Of a DNA stretch of 64,000 bases, positions 22,017-56,320 are shown one piece after another (within the stretch, counting starts at the first letter, position 1; every line of letters starts with the position of its first letter). This DNA comes from an uncultured virus (IMG/VR IMGVR_UViG_3300008111_002316) (Duplodnaviria > Heunggongvirae > Uroviricota > Caudoviricetes). The notes beneath the pieces were generated by a model. It had not been told where the DNA came from. It worked only from the letters and a program-made list of their open reading frames with translations, and made no database searches. Made by a program: the position numbers and the translations under genes. The DNA is taken from the IMG/VR virus record IMGVR_UViG_3300008111_002316, one strand, 5' to 3'.

Positions 22017-22810
22017 TGTACTACTTAGCCCTAAATCAATAAAACTTAATCATATAAAGGGTTTTAACATTTTAGACTTTAAAAAACCCCATTTTAAAAT
22101 CAATAAAACTCTGTCATAGTATGGCTTTGACCCGTTTGTACTATGTAGTGGGGGGGATAACTTTATTTTTTTTATCTTCCACCTCTTTAATCATCGCATT
22201 AAAAAACTTTCATGCTTTTTTTGCTTTCCCACCCTTACCCCGCACCCCAAAAATATTTTTCCACTACCACTTGACATTTTGTTTATTCCCATGCTATGCT
22301 ATACACATAGCGAAAAATAGAGTGGGGGATAGGATACTAGAGTGCTTTAATTCTAGGGTATTCACAAATCAACCTATCAAAAATTAAATATATATTTTAC
22401 ATATTTAGCCCACATTCACCCTTTTACCCATTTTTTACCTCTCAGACCATTACAAATTGGTTTATTGGTAAAAGTATCATGACCCACTCTGAAGTGCGGG
22501 AAAAGGCTGATAAACGAAAAAGTCTAACCCCTCCCCTATCAAAGCAAAAAACAGTTTTGAATCGTTGAGGCTTCCAAATGCTTCAATCTGCTCAATCTAG
22601 ATGGTATATGTTTTTTAGTGCCTAAACTGCGATGATTAAAGAGGTGGAAGATAAAAAAAATAAAGTTATCCCCCCCACTACATAGTACAAACGGGTCAAA
22701 GCCATACTATGACAGAGTTTTATTGATTTTAAAATGGTGTTTTTTTTAAGTCAAAAATGTTGAAACCCTAGATATGATTGGGTTTTATTGATTTTGGGCT
22801 AAGTAGTACA
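22017..22810. repeat. Inverted-repeat element 1: arms 22017-22198 and 22628-22810
   Basis: 22089-22198 is the exact reverse complement of 22628-22737 (110 bp). The outer parts of the arms are imperfect. Confidence 0.95.
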
Positions 22811-22864
22811 ATAAATTTTTGAGTATTGTCCTTTTGGGAATTTTTTGTTATGCTGGGAACAGCT

Positions 22865-24180
22865 TTAGACCCGCCTTTGTTAACATTCATTAACATTTAC
22901 GGTAGTTTACTACCACGGTTAAAGTCTAAAAGATTTTTCTCAAACCCCTTGACATTCTAACTACCATTTGTTATACTTTAATTATTGCAACCCATTTAAT
23001 GCCATGCTATTAGGATTTAAAACTGAAATCAACCCTAATAAAACCCAACTAACTCTCCTAGCCCAAAATGCTGGAGTAGCTAGACACGCATGGAATTGGG
23101 GGTTAGCTCTCACTAAACAGATTCTTAACCATAATAAAATCAATCCAGATGAGAAAATTAAATTCCCTTCAGCTATTGATTTACATAAATGGTTAGTTGC
23201 TATCGTTAAAAGAGATAATCCTTGGTACTACGAAAGCAGTAAATGGAGTCCGCAAAATGCTCTTCGAGCCTTGTCGGACGCATGGCAACGCTGTTTTAAA
23301 AAAGTATCTGGAAGTCCTAAATTCAAAAAGAAAGGTAGAAATGATAAATTCACTCTTGATGGTTCTATCACCGTAGGACATCAAAAAATAAAAATACCTA
23401 ATTTAGGTTGGGTTAAGACTTTTGAGAGATTACCACAAGGGATTTCACCTAAATCAGTTACCCTGTCTAAAAAAGCTGATAGATGGTTTATTAGCTTCAG
23501 AATTGAAGTAGAACCCACTAATCCTGAGAAATCAGTTGATGTAGTAGGTGTTGACCTAGGAATTAAAGCCCTAGCTACACTATCTACAGGGGAAACTTTT
23601 CAAGGTTCAAAACCCTATAAAAGATTGGAATCTAAGTTATCCCGCTTACAATGGTTAAACCGACATAAAACGATTGGTTCTAACAATTGGAGAAAAGCCC
23701 AATTAAAAATAGCTAATCTGCATAGAAAGATTGCTAACATTCGTAAAGATACATTACACAAATTGACTAGCTATCTGACCAAGAACCACGGTATGATAGT
23801 TATTGAAGATTTAAATGTATCTGGAATGATGGCTAATCATTGTCTAGCCAAAGCTATTCAGGATATGGGGTTTTACGAGTTTAGAAGACAGTTAACATAC
23901 AAAACAGAGTTATACGGGTCTAAACTGGTAGTAGTAGATAGATGGTTTCCGTCATCTAAAACTTGCTCTAACTGCGGAGTTAAAAAGGATAAATTGACTC
24001 TATCAGACCGAATTTTCAACTGTGATAGTTGTGGGTTTGAAATAGATAGAGATTTGAATGCTAGTATTAATCTAGCAAAAGCGGGCAGTTAGCTCGTGTT
24101 AGCTTGTGGAGTGGAGTTAGGCCGTCCTTACCACAATGAAGCAAGAAATTAATGTTAATGAATGTTAACATTTTTATAAC
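22865..24180 (+). mobile_element. Non-autonomous IS607/IS200-IS605-type element carrying tnpB only
   Basis: Left end contains TGTTAACATTCATTAACATT and right end contains its reverse complement. No tnpA. Confidence 0.75.
23004..24092 (+). CDS. tnpB: TnpB RNA-guided endonuclease
   Basis: RuvC motifs GVDLG, IEDL and DRDLNAS, plus CxxC..CxxC zinc ribbon. All three catalytic residues are present. Confidence 0.95.
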   Translation: MLLGFKTEINPNKTQLTLLAQNAGVARHAWNWGLALTKQILNHNKINPDEKIKFPSAIDLHKWLVAIVKRDNPWYYESSKWSPQNALRALSDAWQRCFKKVSGSPKFKKKGRNDKFTLDGSITVGHQKIKIPNLGWVKTFERLPQGISPKSVTLSKKADRWFISFRIEVEPTNPEKSVDVVGVDLGIKALATLSTGETFQGSKPYKRLESKLSRLQWLNRHKTIGSNNWRKAQLKIANLHRKIANIRKDTLHKLTSYLTKNHGMIVIEDLNVSGMMANHCLAKAIQDMGFYEFRRQLTYKTELYGSKLVVVDRWFPSSKTCSNCGVKKDKLTLSDRIFNCDSCGFEIDRDLNASINLAKAGS

Positions 24181-24200
24181 GGAACAGCTAATTAACTCCA
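24060..24200 (+). ncRNA. Putative TnpB omegaRNA (scaffold to ~24180, then flank-derived guide)
   Basis: Established position overlapping the tnpB 3' end and right end. Stem GCTTGTGG...GAAGCAAG. Boundaries approximate. Confidence 0.6.
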
Positions 24201-24217
24201 CCTCCCCCAAAAAACTA

Positions 24218-24505
24218 ATGAACAATCCACAACCAAAACCAGTAAAAGTCTATGTAACAGAGTACGCCCTAACAGCCGGGGTTTATTTAACTGAAGCCGA
24301 AATTTCAGAGTGTGGACGTTTTGCAAGAGCAAAAAATCAGTTTGGGACAGACACTGCGTATACTCTAGGAAAGTCAGCCTTTTTTACCGTTGAAGAAGCA
24401 AAAGCAAATTTTGAAAAACGAAAAGCTTCTGCCCTTAAATCTGCTGAAAAGAAAATCAAAAAATTGAAAAATTTAGAGTTTTCTTTTACAGATTGCATTG
24501 ACTAA
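24218..24505 (+). CDS. Hypothetical protein
   Basis: 95 aa; VYVTEYALTAGV...EEAKANFEKRK. Confidence 0.6.
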   Translation: MNNPQPKPVKVYVTEYALTAGVYLTEAEISECGRFARAKNQFGTDTAYTLGKSAFFTVEEAKANFEKRKASALKSAEKKIKKLKNLEFSFTDCID

Positions 24506-24579
24506 ATCACAACCAGAACCGCAAAGAGTTTTTCACTAACCCTGCCGTAAAACAGACGGGGTTTTTACCCAAATTTCCC

Positions 24580-24843
24580 CTGACTAATCCATACCAACCA
24601 GAACCGCAAAGAAGAGTTTATGTTACTAGATACTCTCTAACATCTGGAGTTTATCGAACAAATTCATATTTCTTAAACCCGTACGATGTAGCTTTTGTCA
24701 AAAACCGACAAGGAGCTATTATTACCATAAAAGTTGGTAAGTCAGTCTTTTTGACGTACGAAGAAGCAAAAAAAGATTCTGAAAAACGAAAAGCTTTTGC
24801 CAGGAGATACTTTTGTCCGCTTGAAAACAGTAAATACAAGTAA
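24580..24843 (+). pseudogene. Paralog of 24218..24505 lacking an ATG start
   Basis: Open frame TNPYQPEPQRRVYVTRYSLTSGVY...GKSVFLTYEEAKKDSEKRK starting at CTG. Confidence 0.6.
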
Positions 24844-24921
24844 TGACGATAATATTTTCGGAATATTTGTTACTAGCAAGACTGAAATTATTTTCGCCAG
24901 CATAACTTCTGTTTTGTAAAT

Positions 24922-25824
24922 TTAAGCTAATCCTTGAGTCCAGACTCGCATTAATATTCTTTCCGATCCTAACACCCCGACACATATCCAAGTATTCATG
25001 TTTGATAGATCAGGGTCTATTCCTGTATTTCTATAGACTTCTCCCACAGGTATCTGTAAACTTGTTTTTAACAGATTCGGCACATACCCAATAGCCTTGT
25101 TAGGTGCGTCATTATCCCTTAAGTAAAATTCTGTGGTGTTCGCTCCTGGAGTAGCGGACAGACAAGAAACAGGATAATTAGCAATAGGGTCAGCATCTGG
25201 TAGCTGAGGAATATTAAAATTGCGAACAACATTGCTATTTTCAGCAGAAGGTCTAAAACCTCTAATTTGATGAGTGTCTGAATCTAATATCAATATATAG
25301 GCATTTCTAGGAAAAGCATTACCGCTATAGATTGAGTTATTAAGCCAACCAAAACTAACAAAACAAAAATTATTATTGTTTAAATCCTGCCCGTTTCTTG
25401 CTATTGAAAAAATACTAAGACTTCTATTGTTTAATACGCCGTAAAAAGCACGAGATGAAGCTCCAGCGAATAAGTAACTACTGTCGTATAAGCTGTCGTT
25501 ATTATTCGCTATAGTTGGATAGCTTATTCTCGCCGCAGATGTAACATTAATGTTAGTAGTTACAGTTGACGCATTTTCCTCTCCAAATCTATATTTAGAA
25601 CTGGTAGCTGGGAAAGTAAGACTTTCAAAAGAAGTGGGGAATATAACTTTTAGCGTAGTAGATGAGGATGTAACAGCACAGGTTTGGTTAAAAAAATTGT
25701 TAATCCAAGTAGCTAATTGAGCCGTGGTAAATCCAACAGATTCAGGACTGTACAAAAGATCATTAATTCTCCATCCGTAATAAGAATTGCCGAAGGTGTC
25801 GGTGTTGATTAAAGGTAAATTCAT
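24922..25824 (-). CDS. Virion/tail-fibre-associated protein (putative)
   Basis: 300 aa, S/T/N-rich, downstream of the tail tube gene. Confidence 0.5.
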   Translation of the reverse strand: MNLPLINTDTFGNSYYGWRINDLLYSPESVGFTTAQLATWINNFFNQTCAVTSSSTTLKVIFPTSFESLTFPATSSKYRFGEENASTVTTNINVTSAARISYPTIANNNDSLYDSSYLFAGASSRAFYGVLNNRSLSIFSIARNGQDLNNNNFCFVSFGWLNNSIYSGNAFPRNAYILILDSDTHQIRGFRPSAENSNVVRNFNIPQLPDADPIANYPVSCLSATPGANTTEFYLRDNDAPNKAIGYVPNLLKTSLQIPVGEVYRNTGIDPDLSNMNTWICVGVLGSERILMRVWTQGLA

Positions 25825-26039
25825 GGCGTTCTATCAAATCCTGAGTTATTAAGATCAAAAGCGCAATAAACAAAAGTCCCGTTAACGGGATCAATTGGTC
25901 TTAATTCGTTAACAGAAAAAGCGCAATAAACAAAAGTCCCGTTAACGGGATCAATTGGTCTTAATTCGTTAACAGAAAAAGCACAGTAAACAAAAGTGTT
26001 ATATAGAATTGTATCTGGCCAGTACAACCATCTAGGCAT
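25821..26039 (-). CDS. 72-aa protein made of 20-aa repeats
   Basis: 60-bp tandem repeat at 25857-25998; stop overlaps the next ATG (ATGA). Confidence 0.6.
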   Translation of the reverse strand: MPRWLYWPDTILYNTFVYCAFSVNELRPIDPVNGTFVYCAFSVNELRPIDPVNGTFVYCAFDLNNSGFDRTP

Positions 26040-26093
26040 ATTGAATACTTAAGGAAAAATCTATATTAACAGGATTAGAGATATTAGAATTTA

Positions 26094-26414
26094 CAGTAGA
26101 TAAAAGATTAACATTCGTAAATATCTAAGGGTATCAACTCCCTATTTTGGGTAGCTTAGTTAGGAATTTTATACGGATTCCTCTAAAACTAATCACTCTG
26201 CGAGCTAATTGCACGCTTTACCATAGTTAAAGGGGGTTTTGACCCGTTATAATTAAGCTTGGTTTTTGCCTAACTAATTTTGTTGGGTTAACCCCCGTAT
26301 AACAGATGGTCGATAAGATGTCAAGGGGGGGTGGGTTGAGAAAAATCTTTTAGACTTAAACCCTAGTAGTAAACTACTGTAAATGTTAATGAATGTTAAC
26401 AAAGGCGGGTCTAA
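26094..26414 (-). mobile_element. Gene-less mini-element with the tnpB element's left end and promoter, and a right-end-like terminus
   Basis: 26296-26414 is the reverse complement of 22865-22977 with few changes. Ends ATATTTACGAATGTTAATCTTTTATCTAC. Confidence 0.75.
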
Positions 26415-26438
26415 AACTAAGCACTTTCAAAATTTGAG

Positions 26439-27077
26439 TTAAGCTACGGTTTCATCACCAAAAATAATCCGAACACCAGAGCTATCAGGTAAAGATGTGA
26501 GAGTCACTTTGAGTTCTTGTTGAGTTTGTAACCCAAAAGCCAAGTTAGTACCATTGATAGAAGTCAATGCACCGTTAGGAAAAGTTACCCAGTTATTAAC
26601 CCAAGCTTTATAAGCGGCTACATCAGCATCAAAAGCATCTTCGGCTAATCCCACAGTACCATAAGTTTTACCGTTATAAGTGGTAGTAGTGGGGGCAGTA
26701 TTACCTGGGTCAGTAAGAACGGGATAAGGTTTTAATACAACTTTTTGACCAGTAATCAGAGTGCCTGCTTGGTCTGTAACTTCTACTTTTCGCATAGTGT
26801 AGTTAACGGTATTAACCGTATCAGTGTCAGATTGGAGAGGCACACCAAAAAGAAGAGCAATTTGTTGAGCAGAAATGTCTGAGATAGAGATTTCCAATTT
26901 ACCTTCAATACCCGTTTTAATATAGCCAACTGGTTTAGAGGAACTTTGGTCTTTGAGGGTAAACTCATCCCTTTCAATCCTCAGCGTGGCATCATTCATT
27001 TGTTGGTCATTGGTGATAGTGATTTTATTCAGACCTGTACCAATTTCAATTAGAGATGGTCCGGAACGTTTTGCCAT
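26439..27077 (-). CDS. Major tail (tube) protein
   Basis: 212 aa, T-rich, beta-type; follows the head-tail joining genes. Confidence 0.65.
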   Translation of the reverse strand: MAKRSGPSLIEIGTGLNKITITNDQQMNDATLRIERDEFTLKDQSSSKPVGYIKTGIEGKLEISISDISAQQIALLFGVPLQSDTDTVNTVNYTMRKVEVTDQAGTLITGQKVVLKPYPVLTDPGNTAPTTTTYNGKTYGTVGLAEDAFDADVAAYKAWVNNWVTFPNGALTSINGTNLAFGLQTQQELKVTLTSLPDSSGVRIIFGDETVA

Positions 27078-27130
27078 TGTTTTAATTTATCCTTTTTTAC
27101 TAGCAGACTTAACTAAGGTAATGAGCGTTT

Positions 27131-27547
27131 TTAGACATTTCGGATATGAAATCGATAATCAACACCACTAATATAAATTTCAAAGGATTTATCAAATATA
27201 GGAGCGATGCGACGAGCTAAGTAGCTATGATTAGACTCTTGGTTTAGCATAATAAGGTTAAAAGGATTTAAAGACTGCAAATATTCAATCAAAGATTCTT
27301 GAATTTGACGGTTTTTAGCATAATCAGCGTTAAAAACTAAAAAAGAAACTAAAGGATGAATAATATCTCTAGAAATAATGGAACCTTCAATGTCATCAGA
27401 TATAGCAGAAAAAGTAATAATCGTTTTTCCATTATATAACTCATTCTTTGTTTTTGGGTAATTAACTGAAAAAGTAATGTCACTATTAACAAAAAATTCA
27501 GTTAAGAGAGTAAATAATGCTGATTCTAATTTAGATACACTTAACAT
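27131..27547 (-). CDS. Putative tail terminator
   Basis: Size and position immediately before the tail tube gene. Confidence 0.45.
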   Translation of the reverse strand: MLSVSKLESALFTLLTEFFVNSDITFSVNYPKTKNELYNGKTIITFSAISDDIEGSIISRDIIHPLVSFLVFNADYAKNRQIQESLIEYLQSLNPFNLIMLNQESNHSYLARRIAPIFDKSFEIYISGVDYRFHIRNV

Positions 27548-27774
27548 TAAACCCTCCGAAGCTCTTGAGAAAGTTTGTCAACATAAGGTCTTACTTCAGG
27601 GTTAAGTAATTCTTCTGTTATATCTTTTTTAATAATTACCCTAACTTCGTTTTCTTCTTGGGTAACTTTAGCATTCTCAAACTGTTGAGTAAGAAAGTCA
27701 ACTTTATTAAACAAAGAAATGATTTTGTCTTGTTTAAATCTATCTAATTCAGCATGGTTACGAACGACGGGCAT
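27547..27774 (-). CDS. Putative neck/tail-completion protein
   Basis: Start reassigned to MPVVRNH; called from position. Confidence 0.4.
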   Translation of the reverse strand: MPVVRNHAELDRFKQDKIISLFNKVDFLTQQFENAKVTQEENEVRVIIKKDITEELLNPEVRPYVDKLSQELRRV

Positions 27775-27784
27775 AAAATTATTC

Positions 27785-28213
27785 CTATGGTAACAAAGTT
27801 TGAACATCAGACCAACTATACGGAACCCCTTCATTGGCATTAACCACAACGGTAGATAAAGCAGATAAATTGTATTTAACGTTCTTAACGACTGCCGATA
27901 CAATTCTGGTGTTTTCCGACCAATCAATAAAAGCATAGTCACCCATTAGAATTTCAGCTTGGGGTATAGCCATTTTAAACCTGAAAATTCCTCCAGAATT
28001 TGAACTAAATTGAAGTCTCTCGTGAAAAGTACCATCTTCAAAAGAGATTATAGGATAACTATTTACCAACAAGAGGGGGTTTAGATTAGGTGCGTTAAAA
28101 GGATTAGAGGCAATGTTAGAAGGACGAACAATGTGAACATACCCCGCATTTAATGTGTTCACAATCTCCCTAACTACTTCCTGTAATCCTAAGTCAGATA
28201 AATTTAAACTCAT
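27785..28213 (-). CDS. Putative head-closure protein
   Basis: Size and position; late motif upstream. Confidence 0.45.
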   Translation of the reverse strand: MSLNLSDLGLQEVVREIVNTLNAGYVHIVRPSNIASNPFNAPNLNPLLLVNSYPIISFEDGTFHERLQFSSNSGGIFRFKMAIPQAEILMGDYAFIDWSENTRIVSAVVKNVKYNLSALSTVVVNANEGVPYSWSDVQTLLP

Positions 28214-28251
28214 AAGGAAATTTTGGTGTAATAACCTTATTTTGAGCGGAA

Positions 28252-28557
28252 TTAGTTTAATCGTCTTCGGAAATGATAAGTACCAGAAACAAATTTTCCA
28301 ACATCGGAAGCGTGAAAAATCATTGTGCCAAGAGTTCGATTGATTGAAATGAAACCCCCAACAGGTGGAGATGCCCCATTAAACAAAATACGTTCAGGAG
28401 GTATTAATTCATTATTGATGCTTAATTTAAGATAATTTAAGTCAGCACCAATAATTTCTTCAAAACCTGATTTTGAAGAAGCAAAAGGAAAAGGTACGAC
28501 TAGAGAATCAGGGATTAAAATAGACATTAAAAGAGAATCAGGGATTAAAATAGACAT
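28252..28557 (-). CDS. Small virion protein with a duplicated N-terminal decapeptide
   Basis: MSILIPDSLL-MSILIPDSLV, from a 30-bp duplication. Confidence 0.55.
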   Translation of the reverse strand: MSILIPDSLLMSILIPDSLVVPFPFASSKSGFEEIIGADLNYLKLSINNELIPPERILFNGASPPVGGFISINRTLGTMIFHASDVGKFVSGTYHFRRRLN

Positions 28558-39682: not shown

Positions 39683-42600
39683 TAGTTTATTCCTAATTTT
39701 CTTCTAGCGGCTGGCGAATAACGAATTGCATCATAAACTGAGTTTTTAGCTGTTTCTACTGTTTGTTCAATAGCTTGTTTAAATACTTCTTCAGTCACAA
39801 AGTTTTGCCCATTAAAGGCAGTGGATGCGTAGTTTAACTCTATTTTAGGTAAACTAAGATTCTCGCTTTGACCCATAAACTCTGCAATAGCTTTTTCAGA
39901 CTCAGATTTGGGTTCAGGTAACATAGCACTTTTACCTCTAAATCTTTCACTAGATGGTATATCGTCCAAACCTAAATTTTGAGGTGATTGTATGTCAGCT
40001 AATTGTAAATAACCAGCATTTAAAGCATTTAGCTTACCTTCACCACCAAGATAGGACATTCCTTTATTTGTTATTACACCCTCTCCCGGTGTTAACATTG
40101 CCGGTATAGTATCTGAGTTACCAAACCCTCCCACTAAACCTCCAGAATTATATCTTTTTGGTCTTTGGTTACCACCAAATAATGAAGTTATGAAAGGTAA
40201 AGAAGTCATTAACAATCCTAATATACCTTCTACCCCGCCCATACCTCCTAACAATTGGCTGAAAAAGCCCCCACCACTACCGGCTCCTGTGGCTTTTGTC
40301 AAAGGTTCTAAGATATTCATAGGCATTTGGAATTGAGGAGTTGACCCAAAAGTAAAAGGACTACCCAGATTAAAGTCAGATTTTAATCCTAAAGGAGATG
40401 GTTGACCGTTAAAGGATGAAAATTCTGAAATATTTTGAAGATTCAAATTGTCACCAAACCCTAAACTATAATTAGGCTTACTAAAACCTAAATCTATACC
40501 CAAGTCTGATATACCCGAAGCAACTATAGCTTCTTGTGGCTTAAAGAAACTTGATGTTGAACCTTGGTATGTACCATTTTGTAAATCTTTTTCCATTTGT
40601 AAATACTCTGTTTGCCTTTGCTGTTTCATCATGTCTCGCCACTGATGATTCTCTGGATACATATCCAGTTGCTCTTTTACTGTATGACTTGTAGGGGTGT
40701 TGATAGGGGCGGGGGTGTTGATAGGGGCTGGAGTAAGAGGTGTTGTAGGAGTCTCAGGATTTTTAGGGATAGCAGGCGTATCTTTATCATGTCCGTCACA
40801 AACAGGAACACACACAGGCGTAGATTCTTGACCATTAGGCATAGCTGTCGTTTCTGGCTTTTTCCCCTGTGCTACAGAATTATCTTTGTTCTCTGTTTTA
40901 GCTTTAGATTTATTTTTATCCTTTGACGAATCATTAGATAGTCTTTTTATTTCATCAGACAAATTATTTATGCCGTCTCGAACATCACTTAAAATATCCC
41001 TAGAAGTTAATAAGGTGTTTTTAATTTTTTCTTGGATTGAAGTCTGAACACCTATATTGATAGCCATACCTTGTTCCCCATTAGCTGAGTTGACGGCTAT
41101 AAGTTTAGCTAATTCCCCATCGCCTACGTTTTCATTAAGGGTTTCGCTAAATTTTTTGAATATGCTTTCTGCGGATTTACCAGCTTCTTCAATATTAGCA
41201 ACTTCCAAAATACTTGTACGCATTCTAGCATTAAGTTCTTTCAGATTCTCTTGTTGTTTAGCGTCTAAAGCCATAATTTCAGCAAAAGTCTTTTCTCGGT
41301 TAATGCTGTTTTCAGGGTTTTCCATTGCTGGTTTCCCAAATTCTAAACCTTTTAATTGTGAGTAGTTAGGGCTTACAGCGTCTTTAATACCTTTGTCATC
41401 CCGTTTAGTTAACGCATCCTTAAAAGGGGCTATCATCAAATCTTTCAGATAATTCCATCCAATTTTACCTAATTCTTTAAGTAAATTATCTGAAAACGAT
41501 TTCATTTTTTGCTCAAAAGTTTTACTAGAATCCGTTAATATATCATAGAGTCCTGTAAAAGCACCGTCAACGACTTCTGCGATTTGAGAGTTGATTCTAT
41601 ACAAATCATCTAATTCAGTGGCAGATTTTTCCATTGCCACTTTTAATTTATTGTACGCCGCATTTTTAGCATTGGCTAACTCTGTGTCAATACCTACTAT
41701 TTTTGATTGAATTTCTGCGTATCTTAAAGCCGCTTCTTGTTGTCCTTCAGGAGTCGAGAAAGCTCCCGATACCGCTCTTTGTTCTAAAGCTTCTTTAGCT
41801 TTTTGTTCTTCTAATCTTCTAGAATTAGCATTTAATGTAGCACTTAATATGCTTTTTTCATATTCTATTTGGGCATTTTTAAGCTCTAATTCAGCACCAG
41901 CCCTTCTACTATTTCTGCTTTGACCCATTTTTAGGATTTCTATACGAGCATTATTAGCCTCGATTTGCGCTTGATTGTAACCAATTGCGTTATTCCCTAC
42001 TGACTTATTAAAGTCATCAGTCGCTTTTTCCACTCTATACTTTCTTTCAATCTCCAAAAGCATTTCTAATGCTTTCTTTTGTTGTTCTAAGTATAATTTG
42101 GATTGTTCTAGGTTGTCTTTACTTACTAAAGATAATTCCCCAAACACTTCTGTCACAGTAGATAATTGAGAAGTCATTAGCTTGATTCTTAACTCTAAAT
42201 CAGCAACACTTTTGTCATAGCCTTCTTGTTTCTTTTCAAAATCTAAAATATCATCGGCTACTTGGGAAAATCCTCGTCCCAATTCTCTTGTTTCTTTGAA
42301 AATTTCTAAGAAACTTTCAAAAAAGGTTAAATTAGCTTTTATTCTAGACATATCTAAAATATTTTGAGCATCTAATTTTAACCCTTCAATTTTTGCCTGA
42401 TTAACACGAATTGAGGCTTCACCAAAGGCAACTTTTTGACTGAAAAACTCATCTGGAAAATATTGCCCTAATGCCTTATTAAGTCCTACCTGTCTTCGGA
42501 TTCCAGAAGTTTCTTGTTGTAATCCTAATTGTTCTTCTTTGTTTTTAAAGATACTAGAACTTACATCATTAGCTAAACCTAATAATTTAGTGACAGAACC

Positions 42601-47589: not shown

Positions 47590-48099
47590 ATGCAACACTT
47601 AAATTTAACCCACCAACAACAAATCAAAGCTTTTTATAGCAATCAAACTTTGAGTCTGATTCAATCACAATTGCAAGCCATTAAACGTGCTATGTCTGAC
47701 TGTGATGTATCTGGTGAAGATTATATGCAAGAAGGTATTCTTGTCGTTTTGAAAAAATTGAAAACTTGGAATCCCTCTAAAGGTTCCCTAACCACCCACT
47801 GTTGGCTAGATTTGCGATGTAAATTTAATCGGTTAAAACACCGTCAGACTCAGCAATATTTTCTTTCTAATTCTCTGAAATTTTCCACCTTTTCTACTGA
47901 TTCTGAAGAACACAGGCTAATTTTGGCTAGTTTCTTAGAATCCTTAACACCGATAGAAAAACAGATTGTTGCTTTGCGATGGTCGAGAAATAGTAATTAT
48001 CCACTAATTTGCTCTGAACTGAAAATATCCTTGCAAAAACTGAAAAATCATGTTAAGATGATAAAAGATAAATTGACCTTAGCAGGATTTCACCCCTAA
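47590..48099 (+). CDS. Phage sigma-70-like factor
   Basis: EDYMQEGIL..WNPSKG.LTT (region 2); LTPIEKQIVALRW..ICSELKIS (region 4). Promoter TTGCTT-17-TATAAT at 47528-47556. Confidence 0.75.
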   Translation: MQHLNLTHQQQIKAFYSNQTLSLIQSQLQAIKRAMSDCDVSGEDYMQEGILVVLKKLKTWNPSKGSLTTHCWLDLRCKFNRLKHRQTQQYFLSNSLKFSTFSTDSEEHRLILASFLESLTPIEKQIVALRWSRNSNYPLICSELKISLQKLKNHVKMIKDKLTLAGFHP

Positions 48100-49043
48100 T
48101 GACTACTACTCTTAAAGCCTTGGTAATAGCTCAAACTTTCAATCACCGTACAAAGTCGACTATAACCACTTTTCAAATCACCATGCCACGTTTTGTTTTG
48201 GCTCAATTGAACAAACATCGCATTTTGTCTTCTAATACAGAATCTAATCGTGCTGTTCCTATTGCTAAAAAAGACGCAAAACTTCTTGCTAACCCTTATT
48301 TTCCCCTCTCTTGGGGTACTAACCAAAAAGGAATGCAGTCTGGTGTACCATTACAGGGCTTCAAGCACTATTTGGCTAACTTGATTTGGTTTTTATCTTT
48401 GCATTCTCAGCGAATTTACGGTAATCTATTACATCGACTAGGTGTACATAAAGAAATTGTCAATCGCTTAACCGAACCTTTCCAATTAGTTGATATTGTT
48501 ATTACTGGTACTCAATGGGAAAACTTTTTTAATCTACGGACTAATATCGCCGCTCAACCTGAAATTCGAGAAATAGCCTTATTAATGAAAAAAGCTATTA
48601 CTGAGTTTCCAGATTTAAAAATTACTTCTGACGAGGTTTTTCTTCATCTTCCCTATGTCCATCCTGAAGAAAAAGAAAAATACGAAGACGACTTTTTGGT
48701 ATTATTTGCCATCTCTAGTGCAAGATGTGCCAGAGTTTCGTACTTAAACCACACTGGTAATTCAAACGTTACCGCAGATGTTAAACTTTTTCTCAGCTTA
48801 GTTAAAAGCGGTCATTGGTCTGCACTTGAACACTGTGCGATAGCTTCTAATCAGTTTGCCCTTTTTGGTAACTTTATTGGTTGGATTCCAGTTCGTAAAT
48901 TGTTTGAGGGAGAATCTGGCGATTCGGCTATGGATAATATTCCCTATCTTAACCCTAAAGAAATTAAAGAGGTTTCTTCTTTCCCCTCTTTAAGCTATTC
49001 TTCCACTTCTGATTCCTTGAGTCAACTATTTCACATTTTGTGA
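48099..49043 (+). CDS. thyX: FAD-dependent thymidylate synthase
   Basis: PRFVLAQLNKHRILSSNTESNRA, WENFFNLR..AQPEIR, SARCARVSY, GHWSALEH. Confidence 0.8.
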   Translation: MTTTLKALVIAQTFNHRTKSTITTFQITMPRFVLAQLNKHRILSSNTESNRAVPIAKKDAKLLANPYFPLSWGTNQKGMQSGVPLQGFKHYLANLIWFLSLHSQRIYGNLLHRLGVHKEIVNRLTEPFQLVDIVITGTQWENFFNLRTNIAAQPEIREIALLMKKAITEFPDLKITSDEVFLHLPYVHPEEKEKYEDDFLVLFAISSARCARVSYLNHTGNSNVTADVKLFLSLVKSGHWSALEHCAIASNQFALFGNFIGWIPVRKLFEGESGDSAMDNIPYLNPKEIKEVSSFPSLSYSSTSDSLSQLFHIL

Positions 49044-50024: not shown

Positions 50025-50046
50025 ATTTTTGGAATTAGAGTTAAAT

Positions 50047-51093
50047 CTAACCTACCTTAATGTTTTTAATAACCCCTACATTCTTACGAGTAGTCAACTG
50101 TAATTGAGGAATACAACCAACTACAAAGTTATCAACATACAAGGAAGTTTGGGCTAACTGACGCATTAAGGTATATACCCCATTGGCAGAAAAAGCACCA
50201 ACTACAGGAGTAGAATAGAAGCGTAAATCGTCTTTTTTCAGAAAATACATTACACCTTCATCTACCGCAGTTCCTAATGCAGTAGTGATAGCCGATTCTG
50301 CGGCAGTCCGAGTACGAGAACAGAATACGTCATCGATAATAGGTCTTCCCATGTACCCAGCTACATTAAATCCTAAGTCAATTAAAGGTACACGCTGACC
50401 ATCAAAAGTCATGATTTGATAGCTACGATTAGATTCAAAAACTTTTTTGTACTGCTCTACCACTTTAGGAGTCGTCAAGATTAGGTCGTAAGCACCCGGT
50501 CGATAACGGATTTTACGGTCTAGCTCTAACAAAAAATCAGTTTTTAATACTTGACGCTTATCCGTACCCGTTGCAGTAGCATCCCACGCATCTACTTCAG
50601 AGACATTCCATAACGGATAAGTTGCACTGGAAATACCAGCGTAGTCTTGTCCAGAAGCGGCAATTGATAACCCAACTAGACCACCATCTGCAATAGCTCC
50701 AGAACCATCATACAGTTTTTTGTTCAGGGTAGTCGCAATTTCTTCAACTGCATTTCGCATTTGGGCTTCCAACAAATTACGCAATTCCTCATTGCTCACT
50801 TGTTCTTTAGACTCTTCGATTTCCTTCAGATTTAAGGTAAAAGTTGATTGAACACTTGCCGCACTAATGGGCAATTGAGCCGGTAACGTTGCATCCATTG
50901 AAGCCGCAGGTGCAGAACCAGTAATCGCTACTCCAGTTGCGGTAGTCCCTCCCATTCCTACACCCCATTGGATGTTAGATTTGCGTTCGGGAAACTTGCT
51001 TAATAATCCTAAAAACGTTGCACTACGATTAATTTCTTGTGTCAATAACTCCGAAAAAACGTTATTGAGTACAGCCAAATTTAACTTTGCCAT
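50047..51093 (-). CDS. Major capsid protein (HK97 fold)
   Basis: 348 aa; KLYDGSG..GLVGL, YMGRPIIDD; downstream of the scaffold gene. Confidence 0.85.
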   Translation of the reverse strand: MAKLNLAVLNNVFSELLTQEINRSATFLGLLSKFPERKSNIQWGVGMGGTTATGVAITGSAPAASMDATLPAQLPISAASVQSTFTLNLKEIEESKEQVSNEELRNLLEAQMRNAVEEIATTLNKKLYDGSGAIADGGLVGLSIAASGQDYAGISSATYPLWNVSEVDAWDATATGTDKRQVLKTDFLLELDRKIRYRPGAYDLILTTPKVVEQYKKVFESNRSYQIMTFDGQRVPLIDLGFNVAGYMGRPIIDDVFCSRTRTAAESAITTALGTAVDEGVMYFLKKDDLRFYSTPVVGAFSANGVYTLMRQLAQTSLYVDNFVVGCIPQLQLTTRKNVGVIKNIKVG

Positions 51094-51125
51094 TTTCTTT
51101 GTGTTTGTTGTAGATTTTTCTTTTG

Positions 51126-51187
51126 CAGTTGATAAAACATTAACATTCGTTAATATCTAAGGGTATCAACTCCCTATTTGGGGTAGC
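51126..51187 (-). repeat. 62-bp copy of the mini-element right end in the capsid leader
   Basis: 58/62 identical to 26094-26155. Confidence 0.9.
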
Positions 51188-51318
51188 ACTTTATCCGGTA
51201 CAACGGTATCTACAAGTTAAATTGGCCTGTAGTCGCTCTCTAATTTTAGAATTGGGCGAAAAATTTGAAAAATTTCTATAATTTATGCTATCATATAAAA
51301 AACAGCCGGAGATTTCCA

Positions 51319-51603
51319 ATGTTTGTCAAAAATTTTGAGTTCAATAAACATTCCGACTCTATCCATCTACATTTAGAAGTTTATACAACTTGTGAGACCA
51401 GTTGGGACTATTGGATTGACCTTCATCCATTTGATGGCGACAATCCCGATGTTTTTATTTTTGATTTTCCTTTGATTCTTTCCAATATGGTAGAAGCAGT
51501 GGTTTTTGATTTTGAAAAATTAAAAAACCGTAGCTTAAACATTAAAGAACAAGCAACTTTGGTTAAATTTTTGCTTGCTCTTCAATGTTTGACTATTTAT
51601 TAG
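51319..51603 (+). CDS. Hypothetical protein
   Basis: GGAG RBS and sigma70-like promoter upstream. Confidence 0.55.
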   Translation: MFVKNFEFNKHSDSIHLHLEVYTTCETSWDYWIDLHPFDGDNPDVFIFDFPLILSNMVEAVVFDFEKLKNRSLNIKEQATLVKFLLALQCLTIY

Positions 51604-52220
51604 TCTTCTAAAAACAAATCATCAAGGGTATTCTTTTTACTCTCTTCTTTGGGGGCTACCGTTGTGTTTTGAGGTTTTAACCCGCTACCTCTTGCTTTAG
51701 ACGTAGGAGGTACTAGGGTTTTTCCAAAATCGGTTTCTAAAAACTTATCTACAGCCGTATCCAACGAAACTACAGATTCTCCGCTCTTGACATACCATAT
51801 ACCGTCTTCTTGTTGCAAATTGCCCTCATTCTCTAACTTAAAAGCCTTCAAAGCAATCCCACTATTTAAAACTTTTTTACCATTCAAAGCACTTAATAGA
51901 TTGCCGTCCAATTCTTTTAAAAGTAATTTCTTGTCTTTTTCTTCTAACTGCGCTTTAAAATCTGCAATTTGTCTTTCCAATGCTTTTAAACTTAATTTAG
52001 TTTTTTCTTCTTCCTGAACTGGTGCTTTTTCTTCTTCCAAAACTGGCACTTTTTCTTCTTTAGGTTTTAAACTTTTTATTAGACTACTGACTGTCCCAGA
52101 ATTTTTTTTGTCCACTTCTTGGAGAATTTCCCCTTTCATTCCCTGTAAACTGGTCTGGACTTGCTCTAATAGCAAGGATTGAGACTCTTCCAATAATGCC
52201 TTTAATTCTTCTAACGTCAT
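51600..52220 (-). CDS. Capsid scaffolding protein
   Basis: Coiled-coil, E/K-rich, ARGSG near the C-terminus; upstream of the capsid gene. Confidence 0.65.
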   Translation of the reverse strand: MTLEELKALLEESQSLLLEQVQTSLQGMKGEILQEVDKKNSGTVSSLIKSLKPKEEKVPVLEEEKAPVQEEEKTKLSLKALERQIADFKAQLEEKDKKLLLKELDGNLLSALNGKKVLNSGIALKAFKLENEGNLQQEDGIWYVKSGESVVSLDTAVDKFLETDFGKTLVPPTSKARGSGLKPQNTTVAPKEESKKNTLDDLFLED

Positions 52221-52354
52221 ATTTGAGCTTAAATTTAGCTTAATTTTAGATTGCTCAAATATTTTGAGCGATTTTTCAAAATACCCCTTGACAAAAATTC
52301 CAAAATTTGCTATATTGGTTTCAATCAAGTTAAACAGCCACACCTACTATTCTT

Positions 52355-52738
52355 ATGGAATTAAAAACCGGTGATAAATTATTTGCTCTAGAACGCAGGT
52401 TATACTGTGTTGACACCTTCCCTTATGTTTTCGTAGTACACTCAGTTACCCCTAAACTTGCCTATATTCAACCTTTTGACAATAATGACTACCAACAATC
52501 GTCTAAATACACAGTTTATCGTACCTTAGTCTCTCATGAATCCAGATTTATAGCTAATTGGAGAGGAAAACCTCACCCTGCTTTCTCTTCTAGCTTCGAC
52601 TATCTGTGGCTATGGGATGAAACTTTAAACAGTTTGTCGCCTTCTAAATCTAAAGACCTTGTTTTTTCTGAAACTGAACTTAAACTTTTGGAAGTTCAAA
52701 CATTTAATCAAATTTTGGAGGATTTTTCTGATGTCTAA
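52355..52738 (+). CDS. Hypothetical protein
   Basis: TTGACA-17-TATATT promoter at 52288-52316. Confidence 0.55.
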   Translation: MELKTGDKLFALERRLYCVDTFPYVFVVHSVTPKLAYIQPFDNNDYQQSSKYTVYRTLVSHESRFIANWRGKPHPAFSSSFDYLWLWDETLNSLSPSKSKDLVFSETELKLLEVQTFNQILEDFSDV

Positions 52739-53156
52739 ATTATTAAATATTGGTGACAAAGTTGCAAGTATAGGTTTTGCTGGAAAATCATGTGGGAGCG
52801 AATATTTTAATATATTCCATATTGACCATGTATCTGCTAAACGCTGTCGTGCTTTCTGTACCAATAGCCAAAGACTCAAAGATGTCGTGTTTACCCTCGA
52901 CCGTACACCTTATTATCAAGACGGCATTGCTTTCTATCATTTTCACGGTTCTTATGGTGGTGTCGATGCTGTTTTAGTTACTGAGGCTATTCAAAAGCTC
53001 TACGAGAACTATTCCCGCATCCTTCGCCTAAAAAAACAGGTAAAAGCCATTTACCAATGGTCTGAAAATCTTTCTTTGCACACTACTACCGATTTATCTG
53101 TTATAATCAAAGCAATCAACACAATCGATTCTTTGATTAAACCAAAAAAAAAATGA
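52731..53156 (+). CDS. Hypothetical protein
   Basis: Start MSKLLNIGDK overlaps the upstream stop. Confidence 0.55.
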   Translation: MSKLLNIGDKVASIGFAGKSCGSEYFNIFHIDHVSAKRCRAFCTNSQRLKDVVFTLDRTPYYQDGIAFYHFHGSYGGVDAVLVTEAIQKLYENYSRILRLKKQVKAIYQWSENLSLHTTTDLSVIIKAINTIDSLIKPKKK

Positions 53157-53785
53157 CTAACCATACTCTAACCCTATCTGCTTGTCTAAGCTCAATTGAC
53201 TTAGTTCAAATTCCCAATGCAAATTTTAATTTTGGGAAATATCCAGTGACTCAGGCACAATATCAGTCTGTAATGGGAACCAACCCCTCTTATTTCAAAA
53301 ACAATCCACAAAATCCAGTAGAACAAGTCAGTTTTGACGACGCTCAAGCTTTTTGTCAGAAATTAAGTCAAATAACAGGGAAAACCTATCGCCCACCAAC
53401 GGAAGCCCAATGGGAATATGCTTGTCGGGCTGGTACTACTACTCGCTTTTATTATGGCAATGATGCTAATGAGTTAGGAGACTACGCTTGGTATTTCAGA
53501 AATTCTCAGGGAACAACCCATCCCGTAGGGCAAAAAAAGCCTAATAATTGGGGACTTTATGACATGATTGGTAATGTTTGGGAATGGTGCGCTAGTTATG
53601 GCGGCGCACCAACAGACGGCAGTGCTTGGATAGAAATTAGCAATAAATCTTACAAAGATATTGTCGTGCGTCGGGGAGGCTCTTGGGTTAACGATGAAAT
53701 TAACTGCTATTGCCCCTACCGAGGCTTTCTCCATCACTCCATCTCAGATTTTAACTATGGTTTTCGGGTAGTCTGTGACAATTAA
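53153..53785 (+). CDS. FGE-sulfatase (SUMF1/C-type lectin fold) domain protein
   Basis: YPVTQAQY, PVEQVS, PTEAQWEYACRAG, GLYDMIGNVWEW, RGGSW..GFRVV. Confidence 0.9.
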   Translation: MTNHTLTLSACLSSIDLVQIPNANFNFGKYPVTQAQYQSVMGTNPSYFKNNPQNPVEQVSFDDAQAFCQKLSQITGKTYRPPTEAQWEYACRAGTTTRFYYGNDANELGDYAWYFRNSQGTTHPVGQKKPNNWGLYDMIGNVWEWCASYGGAPTDGSAWIEISNKSYKDIVVRRGGSWVNDEINCYCPYRGFLHHSISDFNYGFRVVCDN

Positions 53786-53803
53786 TTACTAATTAGCTAT
53801 TTA

Positions 53804-53974
53804 TCAGTTATCATTCGCTTGACTCATCATGATAAAATTATCAATCTCATCGTCCATTGTTGGCGCAAAGTCTTCTTCATCTTTTTTGTTAATGGCAATC
53901 ACTGTCACTAAAAACATACCAAACAAAACGATAAAAAAACCTAAAATCAAGCCAGTTAATAAAATTAATTCCAT
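53804..53974 (-). CDS. 56-aa single-pass membrane protein (not in the ORF track)
   Basis: MELILLTGLILGFFIVLFGMFLVTVIAINKKDEED...; AAGGA RBS. Confidence 0.55.
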   Translation of the reverse strand: MELILLTGLILGFFIVLFGMFLVTVIAINKKDEEDFAPTMDDEIDNFIMMSQANDN

Positions 53975-54043
53975 TTTTTTTTATCCTTAAAAAAGAGCCA
54001 ATCCCCTACAGAATTGGCTTTTTGAGAAAAACACAGGAGCAAA

Positions 54044-54343
54044 CTAAGCTGTAAGTTTAGTCACACAGGCGCTAACAAAACTAGCAGGAGTAGTGACCCC
54101 AGCACCAGCCGCAACAGCCTGAATAGCATTTACAAAAGCGGTATCTTTAAGAGCAAATTCAAGAATAGCTAAAATAGCGTCTCGTTGCAATAATTGGTCA
54201 GCATTTGCCGAACCATTAATATTGTAACCATAGGTTGCCCGGAGAATATCTACACCACTATTTACATATTGGGGGTCAAGTAGATAGCTACCACTGGCTG
54301 GATTTGCTCCCCCTTTGACTGCGGGGGTATAAACTAAAGGCAT
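54044..54343 (-). CDS. Capsid cement/decoration protein (Mic1 gp47-like)
   Basis: 99 aa. Sequence recalled as close to the Mic1 cement protein (not verified). Late motif upstream and terminator downstream. Confidence 0.65.
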   Translation of the reverse strand: MPLVYTPAVKGGANPASGSYLLDPQYVNSGVDILRATYGYNINGSANADQLLQRDAILAILEFALKDTAFVNAIQAVAAGAGVTTPASFVSACVTKLTA

Positions 54344-54431
54344 ATTTGAATCACCTACTTTAAAAAATAACGTGGAATTTGGGGTAAACGTCTAAACGTT
54401 TCGCACCTACATATCAATTTGGGCGATTTTA

Positions 54432-54920
54432 TCAATCTGTCCACCAAGATATTGGCAAATCCCCTTCTATTTCTTCACCATCAATTGTTGGTTCATATTT
54501 TCCAGTTAAATATGGGGAATCTCCTAAACTATACGGCAATCTGCATTGAGCTTTTGTTTCCGTATCCATACGATGTTCTGTGTATATTTTCGTACTATTT
54601 GGGTTTAATTGGTCATCTAACGACATTAACAATAATTCCTGTTTATGTTCTTTATACCAATCAGAAACCTCCTTTAATTGTTTTCCTTTTAATTTGGTCA
54701 AGTGTTCTTTTATGATTCCATGCACCGTACCCTCATCTGCCCTATACTTTGTATAGATTTTTCCATACCTATTTTTAAATCTGTCTCTTAATGTTGTCCA
54801 CGGGATTCCATATCTTTCAGCTAAACTTCTAACCGATACTCCCCCTAGCTTATAGATTTCAAACAACGTTTCTGTCTGTGTTTTGATTTCTTCTTTGGTT
54901 TTATTTGTTTTTGCTTTCAT
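54432..54920 (-). CDS. HTH DNA-binding protein
   Basis: SVRSLAERYGIPWTTLRDR. Confidence 0.7.
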   Translation of the reverse strand: MKAKTNKTKEEIKTQTETLFEIYKLGGVSVRSLAERYGIPWTTLRDRFKNRYGKIYTKYRADEGTVHGIIKEHLTKLKGKQLKEVSDWYKEHKQELLLMSLDDQLNPNSTKIYTEHRMDTETKAQCRLPYSLGDSPYLTGKYEPTIDGEEIEGDLPISWWTD

Positions 54921-55071
54921 CGAAAAAATTACCTCAACTGTGACACCTAAATTTTAAGTTTACATAACTATATTTGTCAAAATCTGTCTTTATTCGCTCA
55001 GTTAACCCCTTTAATAGTTAACCTTAAATCTATTCCTGAACAAGTGTGAACCCCTTTTTGATACTTAGAAT

Positions 55072-56320
55072 GTGACACCTAACCTGTACTACTCAGTAAA
55101 AATCAATAAGATTCAGTCATATCAAGGGTTTTAAATTTTTGGGACAGTTTAAATACTGTTTAAAAATCAATAAAACCTAATCACAGTATAGGTTTAGTCT
55201 GTTTTGTACTATGTAGTGGGGGGGATAACTTTATTTTTTTTTATGATAGGGGTATCTAATCAACACAGTGGTTTTTCCTCTAAAATGAGAAACAAGTACC
55301 TTTTGAGAGTATTTGGAAGCTACGAGTACCTTTAAGTACCTTTGAAGATTTAGTTTCCCAATTAGTTGTGTTTTGGCGTAGGTCATCTTTTTTAATGTGT
55401 TTTCAAGGTTTTGTTCTTTGACCACTCCTTATACTAAACCGTGAAACCCTTACACTGCATAGGTTTCAGCCAATTTTTACACAAAAATCTGGCATATCTA
55501 TATATATTATATCTTTTTTTTTTGTTAGGTTAAATGTTTCAAGACCCTAGGGTAATTCCTAGTCTCGTATCCATGCTTATATCATATACGGTTTTGAGCG
55601 AAATGTCAAGAGGTTTTTTAAAGATTTTTCTTTTTCCAAAAGATTTCCCACCCTAAAGCCTTTCTCAGAGAGGATTTCAACACTTTTAACATTTTTTTCC
55701 TTATGTTTTAATATGCTTAACATGGCCTAATAGGGTAAACGTGGTATTGTCTAAGGGGGTTGGAGTGTGAGGAAGGGGTAGAAAATAGCCCTGTAAACCT
55801 TACAGTCTTATTAAGAGAGTGAATATAGCCTAAACGGGTAAAAATGTCTTTAAGGTGTTAAAAAGTAGCAATTGGAGAAAGACCGAGAGTGAAAGGATTA
55901 AAAACGAGTGAACTACTCACAAGAAAGGATAGGCCAGTGGTTTAAGTATTTGTACCTAAGTAATTATACCTATCACCCAGTCCTTTAAAGCCCGAACATC
56001 AAAAACTTGCAAAGCTTTTTAAAACAAGACAAATTGTTAAAGCTATAAACGAAAGGTACTCAAAGGTACTTGTAGCTTCCAAATGCTCTCAAAAGGTACG
56101 AAAAGCTTTTTTTAGGGGTTTTTCACTGTGTTGATTAGATACCCCTATCATAAAAAAAATAAAGTTATCCCCCCCACTACATAGTACAAAACAGACTAAA
56201 CCTATACTGTGATTAGGTTTTATTGATTTTTAAACAGTATTTAAACTGTCTCAAAATTACAAAACCCTTGATATGATTGAGTTTTATTGATTTTCACAAA
56301 GTAGTACACTTAAGGTGTCA
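55072..56320. repeat. Inverted-repeat element 2: arms ~55072-55344 and ~56053-56320
   Basis: 55143-55269 versus 56124-56250 differ only by one base in a homopolymer run. Inverted GTACCTT iterons lie at the inner ends. Confidence 0.95.

Follow-up and report, generated by a model that had tools for sequence, protein, structure and literature searches.

What are the two large inverted repeats that lie 33 kb apart in the genome of a virus related to the Microcystis phage Mic1? The stretch analysed here (the window) is 64,000 nucleotides of DNA from an uncultured virus of the class Caudoviricetes (IMG/VR record IMGVR_UViG_3300008111_002316). The two repeats are called E1 (22017-22810) and E2 (55072-56321, both in window coordinates), and across them the window, a Mic1 relative, is 79-85% identical to Mic1 (MN013189). 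A reading of the sequence alone had proposed that the pair are twin replication origins or flip-flop elements. The interpretation developed below, to which we give about an even chance of being correct, is that E1 and E2 are phage-specific palindromic promoter modules at the borders of gene blocks, with arms that are putative protein-binding arrays, and that E2 is an origin or control region. The promoter-bearing centre of the elements is conserved, their position and orientation are constant, the arms evolve in concert, E2 lies at a skew switch and rearrangement breakpoints fall within the elements.

The comparison covered 36 contigs that carry the conserved core of the arms, 16 of them from IMG/VR (31 loci) and 20 from metagenomes (23 loci); all 36 have Mic1-like flanks. 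A complete IMG/VR relative of 96,796 bp is referred to as G002. Arms were aligned in a set of 17 and then in a set of 48 distinct arms. Centres were aligned as 19 distinct copies of the E1 type (c1) and 5 distinct copies of the E2 type (c2). Prokaryote genomes were scanned for exact patterns, one genome for each of 185,579 species, and protein families were sought with Pfam in 65 open reading frames (ORFs) of the window.

Alignment of the arms recovers both elements where the sequence-only reading had placed them. Each is intergenic and lies between divergent genes, at 21914(-) and 22968(+) for E1 and at 54920(-) and 56682(+) for E2, and no credible ORF is found inside either. The arms of E1 had been described as 110 bp of perfect repeat. 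The repeat is there, as a stretch of 118 nt that is 99% complementary (22081-22198 with 22628-22745), and it continues outward for 83 nt at 84% (22017-22099 with 22728-22810). Likewise, the near-perfect repeat of about 127 bp described for E2 is a stretch of 170 nt that is 92% complementary (55072-55241 with 56152-56321), followed by inner arms of 67 nt at 82% (55277-55343 with 56052-56118). A core common to all four arms had also been described and was found again. Its 31-nt form, TTTGTACTATGTAGTGGGGGGGATAACTTTA, occurs without mismatch at exactly four sites in the window, one per arm (22135+, 22661-, 55203+ and 56160-), compared with a mean of 0.00 over 100 dinucleotide shuffles; with the adjoining run of T8-9, the positions are 22135, 22651, 55203 and 56150. 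The repeated boxes and outer ends said to be common to the arms are equally present, since AAATCAATAAAAC has seven matches in the window, all within arms (0.63 expected), and outer TGTACTAC ends are seen. The parts of the two elements are as follows.

22017-22198, plus strand: E1 left arm, a 182-bp arm module with outer TGTACTAC and inner AATCATCGCA
E1 left arm, direct repeats: two of about 37 bp, 64 bp apart, with AAATCAATAAAAC boxes at 22033 and 22097
22135-22175: E1 left-arm core, TTTGTACTATGTAGT-G7-ATAAC-TTTA-T8
22199-22627, plus strand: E1 centre, c1 type, with promoter, leader hairpin, AT-rich tract, TTTACCCA short repeats and a variable tail
22628-22810, minus strand: E1 right arm, which repeats the arm module in inverse orientation and matches the left arm at 95% identity
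55072-55343, plus strand: E2 left arm, with outer GTGACACCTAA box at 55072-55082 and the common module at 55085-55266
55294-55343: inner extension of the E2 left arm, three AAAGGTAC boxes
55344-56051, minus strand: E2 centre, c2 type, with promoter, homologous hairpin, A-run and AT-rich tract
56052-56321, minus strand: E2 right arm, with AAAGGTAC boxes at 56052-56099, the common module at 56127-56308 and outer GTGACACCTTA at 56311-56321

The 48 distinct arms share one conservation profile, and the module that it defines is 182 bp long. From the outside inward it consists of an outer TGTACTA, two direct repeats of about 37 bp that are headed by AAAATCAATAAAAC and lie 64 bp apart, the conserved core and an inner AATCA. 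The core can be written TTTGTACTATGTAGT-G6-7-TAAC-TTTA-T8, or in a short form TGTACTATGTAGT-G7-TAAC-T8. Given their spacing of 64 bp, the AAAATCAATAAAAC repeats lie on the same face of the helix. The conserved boxes would fit the binding of a protein, and the arms are predicted to be binding arrays. They occur singly, in tandem at a spacing of 16-19 bp, and as inverted pairs. Arms of the E2 type form a clade of their own (support 0.998) and carry additional boxes, with GTGACACCYAA on the outside and, toward the centre, three AAAGGTAC on either side.

E1 and E2 are not the only loci of this kind. Mic1 has 13 copies of the arm at five loci:

about 19.55 kb, a solo arm
22.0-23.0 kb
53.9-55.5 kb, syntenic with E2
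about 72.2-73.5 kb
88.9-89.6 kb, syntenic with E1

In G002 the arm query has 14 matches at four loci; 13 of these are arms longer than 100 nt, and the remaining one is a 43-nt fragment where the contig ends. E1 and E2 are therefore two members of a family with four or five loci per Mic1-like genome, from two subfamilies, and not the twin pair that had been supposed. The family appears to be specific to Mic1-like Microcystis siphophages. Within an element the arms are 94.5% (E1) and 88% (E2) identical by BLAST, and those of E1 are 78-80% identical to those of E2. Over the common 182-bp module, partner arms are 95% (E1) and 93% (E2) identical and at most 88% identical to any other arm. Every arm in the window is thus closest to its own partner, which bears out the local homogenisation proposed earlier, as well as the likeness of arms within and their divergence between elements. 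The number of arms also differs between relatives. Because partner arms are the most alike and arm number varies, the alignments point to gene conversion and unequal exchange among arms.

What do the arms enclose? In all 19 distinct copies the c1 centre has the same order, with a near-invariant block that holds the promoter, a variable A-run, a hairpin, an AT-rich tract and two to six TTTACCCA/TTTAGCCA repeats. In the window, the main features of the centres are these.

22271-22300, plus strand: c1 promoter in E1, TTGACA (22271), 18-bp spacer, TATGCT (to 22300), with TG; sigma70-type, 10/12
55609-55581, minus strand: c2 promoter in E2, TTGACA (55609), 17-bp spacer, TATGAT (to 55581); sigma70-type, 11/12
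22334-22361: leader hairpin of E1
about 55572-55542, minus strand: leader hairpin of E2, homologous to the c1 hairpin
about 22366-22405: AT-rich tract of E1, 87.5% AT
55533-55494, minus strand: A-run and AT-rich tract of E2

The c1 -35 hexamer is identical in 18 of 19 copies and so is the -10 hexamer, the exception both times being contig L018 (TTTACA and TATGAT). Among the five c2 copies the -35 is identical in four (contig L034 has TGGACA) and the -10 in all five. The A-run just past the c1 -10 (22313-22323 in the window) differs in length at homologous sites, from about 5 A in some copies to about 13 in others; it is a tract prone to slippage, at or close to where the transcript presumably starts. 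The leader hairpin is common to c1 and c2, with 93.6% of the alignment cells paired. Compensatory changes are seen in two of its ten pairs (UA to GC between c1 and c2, and GC to AU inside c1), G-U intermediates at three, and its covariation of 0.215 compares with 0.133 in shuffles, none of 500 of which scored as high. A hairpin that acts at the RNA level, on the promoter strand, is favoured by the G-U intermediates, although the events are few. A long structured non-coding RNA in c1 was considered and rejected, as RNAalifold gives only -11 kcal/mol downstream of the promoter and nothing past the single hairpin. The whole window has no Rfam match at gathering thresholds. A terminator scan found no site in E1 and one weak site beyond the E2 arms. 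Contigs from four RNA runs, aligned to 53500-58000 with a limit of 80% likeness, cover the genes for the cement and HTH (helix-turn-helix) proteins and leave the E2 centre almost uncovered. The joints reflect the differing arm numbers of relatives, and the gap is not to be read as transcriptional silence.

Where the centres lie and which way they point bears on a possible role in gene expression. In Mic1 the elements are found at gp48 | gp50, after gp73, at gp93 | gp94 and before gp18, that is, at the borders of gene blocks. The Mic1 transcriptome paper classes gp49-gp73 as early, genes for replication as middle and those for assembly as late. At all ten D-E1-B junctions the c1 promoter is directed into block B, on the tail side, and at all eight reciprocal junctions into the replication block. 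The genes gp18, gp19 and gp93, which are the first downstream of the Mic1 c1 promoters, are listed as sub-cluster M1 in Mic1 Table S1 (PMC11237433, supplement file 3), and this class would fit c1 as a middle-class promoter cassette. The same table places gp48 and gp94 in class L1. The window, Mic1 and nine contigs (11 of 11 assemblies) agree in the orientation of the E1 centre relative to the PhoH/MazG flank, and the E2 centre has one orientation in 7 of 7. Constant orientation together with M1 genes downstream argues against a flipping switch, and the spacer flip-flop suggested by the sequence-only reading is not what the assemblies display.

A further observation concerns the earliest genes. 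Mic1 Table S1 (PMC11237433) lists six immediate-early genes in an "E1-cluster" (gp49 and gp69-gp73), which peak at 0.5 h and fall fast. Exactly these six lie head-on to the promoters of the elements, gp49 facing c2, and gp73-gp69 facing the c1 of the element at about 72.2-73.5 kb. Convergent transcription could be their off-switch. The gene gp49, also reported as immediate-early in the transcriptome paper, encodes another TnpB and in Mic1 lies directly against the left arm of E2.

Can the elements also be replication origins? The cumulative GC skew reaches its minimum at 55,123 in the window, inside the left arm of E2, and at 52,597 in Mic1; the AT-skew minima are at 55,768 and 52,600. The G002 contig breaks inside E2, so that its skew minimum lies at the contig ends, and the maximum, at 48,755 of 96,796, is antipodal. 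In a per-gene regression of skew the coefficient for replichore is 0.09 and that for gene strand 0.03-0.06, and the best-fitting axis has one pole at E2 both in Mic1 (52.5-53 kb) and in G002 (0.5-1 kb). The plus-strand skew stays positive throughout the minus-strand replication genes (73.6-88 kb) and flips at about 9.5 kb without a change of gene strand. Since the switch follows replichore rather than gene strand, E2 is the best origin candidate. A strand-composition switch, repeated boxes and an AT-rich tract are all present at E2, the last two as descriptive features. On the usual skew polarity, E2 would thus be a candidate replication origin and control region, and the terminus would lie near 6-9.5 kb of Mic1. 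At E1 no skew inflection is seen in the window, Mic1 or G002, so of the two origins proposed earlier it is E2 that retains candidacy.

The gene next to E2 may encode a protein that recognises it.

54432-54920, minus strand: HTH protein of 162 aa, homologue of Mic1 gp48, lineage-specific
54980-54951, minus strand: promoter-like site of the HTH gene, TTGACA-18-TAAAAT
54940-54950: GTGACACCTAA box, overlapping the -10 and start region of the HTH gene

Exact matches to GTGACACCYAA are found in the window only at this promoter and start (54940-54950) and at the two ends of the E2 arms (55072-55082, and 56311-56321 on the minus strand). Mic1 has the same pattern, and G002 has the same sites with an extra one at 40,984. 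A box common to the HTH promoter and the ends of E2 is what one would expect if a DNA-binding protein regulated its own gene and bound E2 as well, and the HTH protein is a candidate binder of the E2-specific GTGACACC boxes. Pfam gives an HTH_psq match at 3.7e-05, above the cut-off, and profile searches of PHROGs, NCBIfam and the PDB give none. Homologues fall in only two clusters among those of near length that were searched, all Atlas neighbours score below 0.9, and the AlphaFold model has a mean predicted local distance difference test (pLDDT) score of 45.7. Distant relatives, in which the HTH protein is 57% identical, have a different repeat-rich non-coding region of 1.65 kb just 3' of the HTH gene, with a AGTGGGGGGG...TTTTTTTAT motif. 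In one of them, contig L047, the region beside the HTH gene (5492-7139, 1.65 kb) holds 145-nt direct and 48-nt inverted repeats, and about nine tandem 10-bp GGTTAGATTG repeats lie at 1211-1310.

The elements are also sites of rearrangement, as the sequence-only reading had supposed. The order in Mic1 is E2, tail block, X, (primase...TerL), (MazG, PhoH), E1, replication block, TerL being the large terminase. In G002, and in the window as far as it extends, the X-to-E1 segment (about 25 kb, D-A) is inverted relative to Mic1. Both junctions are chimeric inside E1-type elements; contig L009, for example, runs along Mic1 23340-22774 and then 89111-92501. The D-E1-B junction is present in nine contigs and the window, and the reciprocal junction in eight contigs. 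In G002 the inverted segment has its midpoint at about 47.8 kb, no more than about 1 kb from the skew maximum (48,755). Recombination between E1 and E2, which had been expected to invert or delete the 33-kb block between them, has left no isomer or recombinant in the seven assemblies that cover E2 with its flanks; the arms of the two are only about 79% alike.

Several points weigh against the interpretation set out above. The c1 promoter looks constitutive, yet the genes downstream are of the "middle" class, which implies a regulator, and the Mic1 element at about 72.2-73.5 kb, downstream of which no gene is annotated, fires toward the early genes at their 3' end. The AT tracts of the centres (87.5% AT, 99.88th percentile, or top 0.12%, of window 40-mers) are not the most AT-rich 40-mers of the window. 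DnaA boxes are not enriched in the window (33 compared with 34.4 expected) and form no cluster at E1 or E2. The skew regression is blind to which pole is the origin, and its lowest value in Mic1 is at 6.0 kb, opposite E2, while the poles tie in G002. That the leading strand is G-rich is an assumption; if the polarity were reversed, E2 would be the terminus. In the distant relative G006 the skew test is weakly consistent with an origin in the corresponding place. Its AT-skew minimum, at 61,009, lies within the repeat-rich non-coding region, and its GC-skew curve has no clean V, which is why this independent test is weak. The inversion, finally, rests on one record. The Mic1-type junction is found in none of the 36 contigs, and all 17 that are informative, with both flanks, carry the other arrangement. 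According to the assembly description in PMC7156551, the 12 Velvet contigs of Mic1 were ordered by polymerase chain reaction (PCR), so the inversion may be strain-specific or a choice made in scaffolding.

The same facts can be arranged in other ways, three of which concern replication and packaging. If E2 were the terminus, the origin would lie at the antipodal switch, at about 6-9.5 kb of Mic1, near parA and a parS-like palindrome. The skew gives an axis without a direction, the regression fits both poles alike, and the antipodal switch (9,491 in Mic1, 48,755 in G002) is beside ParA (8171-8791); plasmid par loci often adjoin origins. Nevertheless, under the usual polarity, in which G exceeds C on the leading strand, the skew minimum marks the origin, and this minimum is E2, a repeat-rich non-coding region of 1.2-1.8 kb between divergent operons, and the window has a different gene at the parA site, ParA being elsewhere in its lineage. 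We regard a terminus at E2 as improbable. Much the same low probability is given to the proposal that E1 and the other c1-type elements are origins as well, lytic or auxiliary, in the manner of the P4 ori plus crr. They do share the arm module, the AT-rich tract and the variable-number TTTACCCA repeats with E2, and it is the missing skew inflection at E1 in all three genomes that speaks against this. E2 could, lastly, be a packaging (pac) region, with the HTH protein as the missing small terminase (TerS) and the arms as TerS-binding arrays. No TerS is annotated in Mic1, no small-subunit terminase family of Pfam is found in the window, and the HTH protein is of late class L1 and small; its HTH is at the N terminus, long helices make up its middle and its tail is acidic, features that come in part from a low-confidence model. 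"DNA packaging protein" is the name of one Atlas neighbour (score 0.86, a lead only), and the Mic1 paper infers a P22-like headful mechanism of packaging (PMC7156551). Set against this, the HTH protein matches no TerS family in Pfam, PHROGs, NCBIfam or the PDB, several dispersed copies of a common arm would be unexpected for a pac site, and the skew switch would be left unexplained. A pac region is accordingly judged a poor prospect, at about the level of the other two.

Two further alternatives treat the elements as mobile or invertible DNA. A selfish, non-autonomous element resembling a miniature inverted-repeat transposable element (MITE), with long terminal inverted repeats and sub-terminal repeats, might have spread in the phage lineage and carried the promoter as a passenger. 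Its many copies, solo and tandem arms, ends of the TG...CA type, two repeats per 182-bp arm and an extra arm beside a gp04 homologue in contig L035 would all be in keeping with this. Terminal inverted repeats are thus present; target duplications and host or autonomous copies were not found. None of nine complete elements has a target-site duplication of 2-10 bp. The core has no match in the 185,579 prokaryote species genomes, nor does a degenerate outer-arm pattern that recovers 12 of the 13 Mic1 arms. No transposase with such ends is encoded among the 65 window ORFs, position and centre orientation are constant in all assemblies, and the inverted repeat often runs on past TGTACTAC, by 6-7 bp (AAAAAC) in four of the nine elements. 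Arm number varies and the L035 arm is at a novel junction, but no clean pair of empty and filled sites was found for any element. An origin as a MITE-like element is considered unlikely, and the ordinary host MITE that the sequence-only reading had named as its own refutation is not what was seen. Far less probable still, to the point of being hardly credible, is an invertible promoter switch in which a recombinase flips the centre between the arms and so redirects the promoter. Such a switch would indeed look like this, with a promoter flanked by long inverted repeats in the gap between divergent genes, yet only one orientation was seen in the 11 E1 and 7 E2 assemblies (assemblies report the majority form, and rare flips would be invisible in them) and Pfam finds no invertase or integrase among the 65 ORFs.

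The earlier statement that no recombinase gene is visible stands as far as integrases and invertases go. The same ORFs do include one gene of a mobile element, next to E1:

22865-24180, plus strand: TnpB-only insertion sequence (IS), with its tnpB ORF at 22968-24092, separate from E1 and 54 bp away

No other transposase family was found. The protein matches OrfB_IS605 (5.2e-28), Cas12f1-like_TNB (7.4e-25) and HTH_OrfB_IS605, and the IS of about 1.3 kb is absent from five relatives (L007, L009, L026, L031 and L032), in which 22864 is joined to 24181; the boundaries are accurate to about 9 bp. By its domains and its presence/absence polymorphism, this neighbour is an IS200/IS605 TnpB-only element. 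It has a promoter-like site of its own at 22949-22977.

We return to the promoter modules and to how they might work. In this reading, each is a promoter cassette with one or two inverted 182-bp arms around it. A phage protein would bind the arms and control or insulate the central promoter, for example by bridging both arms. E2 would be a divergent subfamily with added AAAGGTAC and GTGACACC boxes that acts as the origin or control region, the GTGACACC box being common to E2 and the adjacent HTH-gene promoter. As repeats that occur in both orientations, the arms would undergo gene conversion and crossing-over. Gene conversion would lead to homogenised arms and a variable arm number, and crossing-over between arms would invert the segment of about 25 kb from TerL to primase, between E1 and the element just past the left end of the window.

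A wider proposal is that the modules are a bacteriophage counterpart of the homologous regions (hrs) of baculoviruses, with three roles, as origin or control region (E2), as timed, arm-gated promoters and as recombination sites. We entertain it tentatively and think it rather unlikely as a whole. Protein-bound arms would gate the expression of middle genes, transcription that runs from the cassettes head-on into the immediate-early genes would silence them, and the packaging/primase segment of about 25 kb would flip symmetrically about the terminus, possibly with co-existing isomers. Baculovirus hrs are tandem imperfect palindromes of about 30 bp, bound by IE-1, in a eukaryotic virus. Like the modules, they are dispersed intergenic palindromic repeats that are lineage-specific, homogenised and associated with rearrangements, and for which a dual role in replication and transcription has been proposed. 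Unlike them, the modules have one large palindrome per locus, one or two 182-bp arms per side and a promoter centre. Tandem short imperfect palindromes are not found in them, and the likeness is an analogy.

Other known systems can be compared in the same way. The P4 ori plus crr and iteron origins share with E2 repeated boxes, an AT-rich tract, a gap between divergent operons and a primase-helicase of the superfamily 3 (SF3) type; that of the window phage is of this type and has a PHROG match to "DNA primase". Their box sequences are unrelated, and the P4 ori and crr are not known to have palindromic arms or an internal promoter. MITEs and the terminal repeats of inverted-repeat/direct-repeat elements resemble the modules in their long inverted arms with two direct repeats, short non-coding body and several copies. 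They differ in that target duplications (0/9), host copies and a transposase were not found for the modules, whose syntenic positions are constant. As in the isomerisation of chloroplast inverted repeats, herpesviruses and the 2-micron plasmid, a segment between inverted homologous repeats is inverted between genomes, and as in bacterial inversions that are symmetric about the origin-terminus axis, the midpoint of the segment is near the skew maximum. Here, in contrast to true isomers, the alternative arrangements occur in different records only, one of which is a single PCR-ordered assembly. By these comparisons, the modules are not members of the hr, MITE or inverton classes, and hrs are the nearest analogy.

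Several neighbouring features may be recorded. In contig L035 (IMGVR_UViG_3300020162_003312), positions 1-262 hold an arm with 18 bp of the PhoH-side flank of E1, adjoining the gp04 homologue; the counterpart in the window (11174-11436) is unrelated non-coding DNA, and this is a third type of junction, near the skew maximum. A ParA homologue and an HTH_3 paralogue adjoin the element at the early|middle border in the lineage of the window (L006, L014, L025 and L027). At the position of the Mic1 parA the window has only an HTH_3 gene (10692-10994); the partition cassette has moved. The large terminase gene (16326-19061) encodes intein, HINT and LAGLIDADG domains, which had been described before in Mic1. 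An ORF of 562 aa at 521-2209 has CARDB and vanadium chloroperoxidase-like/PAP2 domains; it is located at the variable end of the block adjoining the element just outside the window, occurs in contig L010 and did not align with Mic1. A small protein at 47590-48099 has a weak Sigma70_r2 match; its homologue in Mic1, gp36, bears the annotation of a sigma-70 factor, belongs to class M2 and is possibly a late-promoter factor.

In the passages of the two Mic1 papers reached by a search for terms, other repeats are mentioned and these are not, and the origin, the promoters and the reason for the assembly breaks are not described. A literature search on dispersed or inverted repeats in phages found no phage paper among the matches listed, and a Lake Erie paper has no passage on rearrangements.

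Mic1 serves as the model for siphophages that infect bloom-forming Microcystis, and engineered bloom control might use it as a chassis. In practical terms, the analysis yields a candidate origin or control region of about 1.2 kb and a portable promoter cassette with a conserved leader. The map of recombination-prone repeats would help in the annotation, engineering and assembly of Mic1-like phages, and the family provides a clear phage example of dispersed palindromic modules that evolve in concert.

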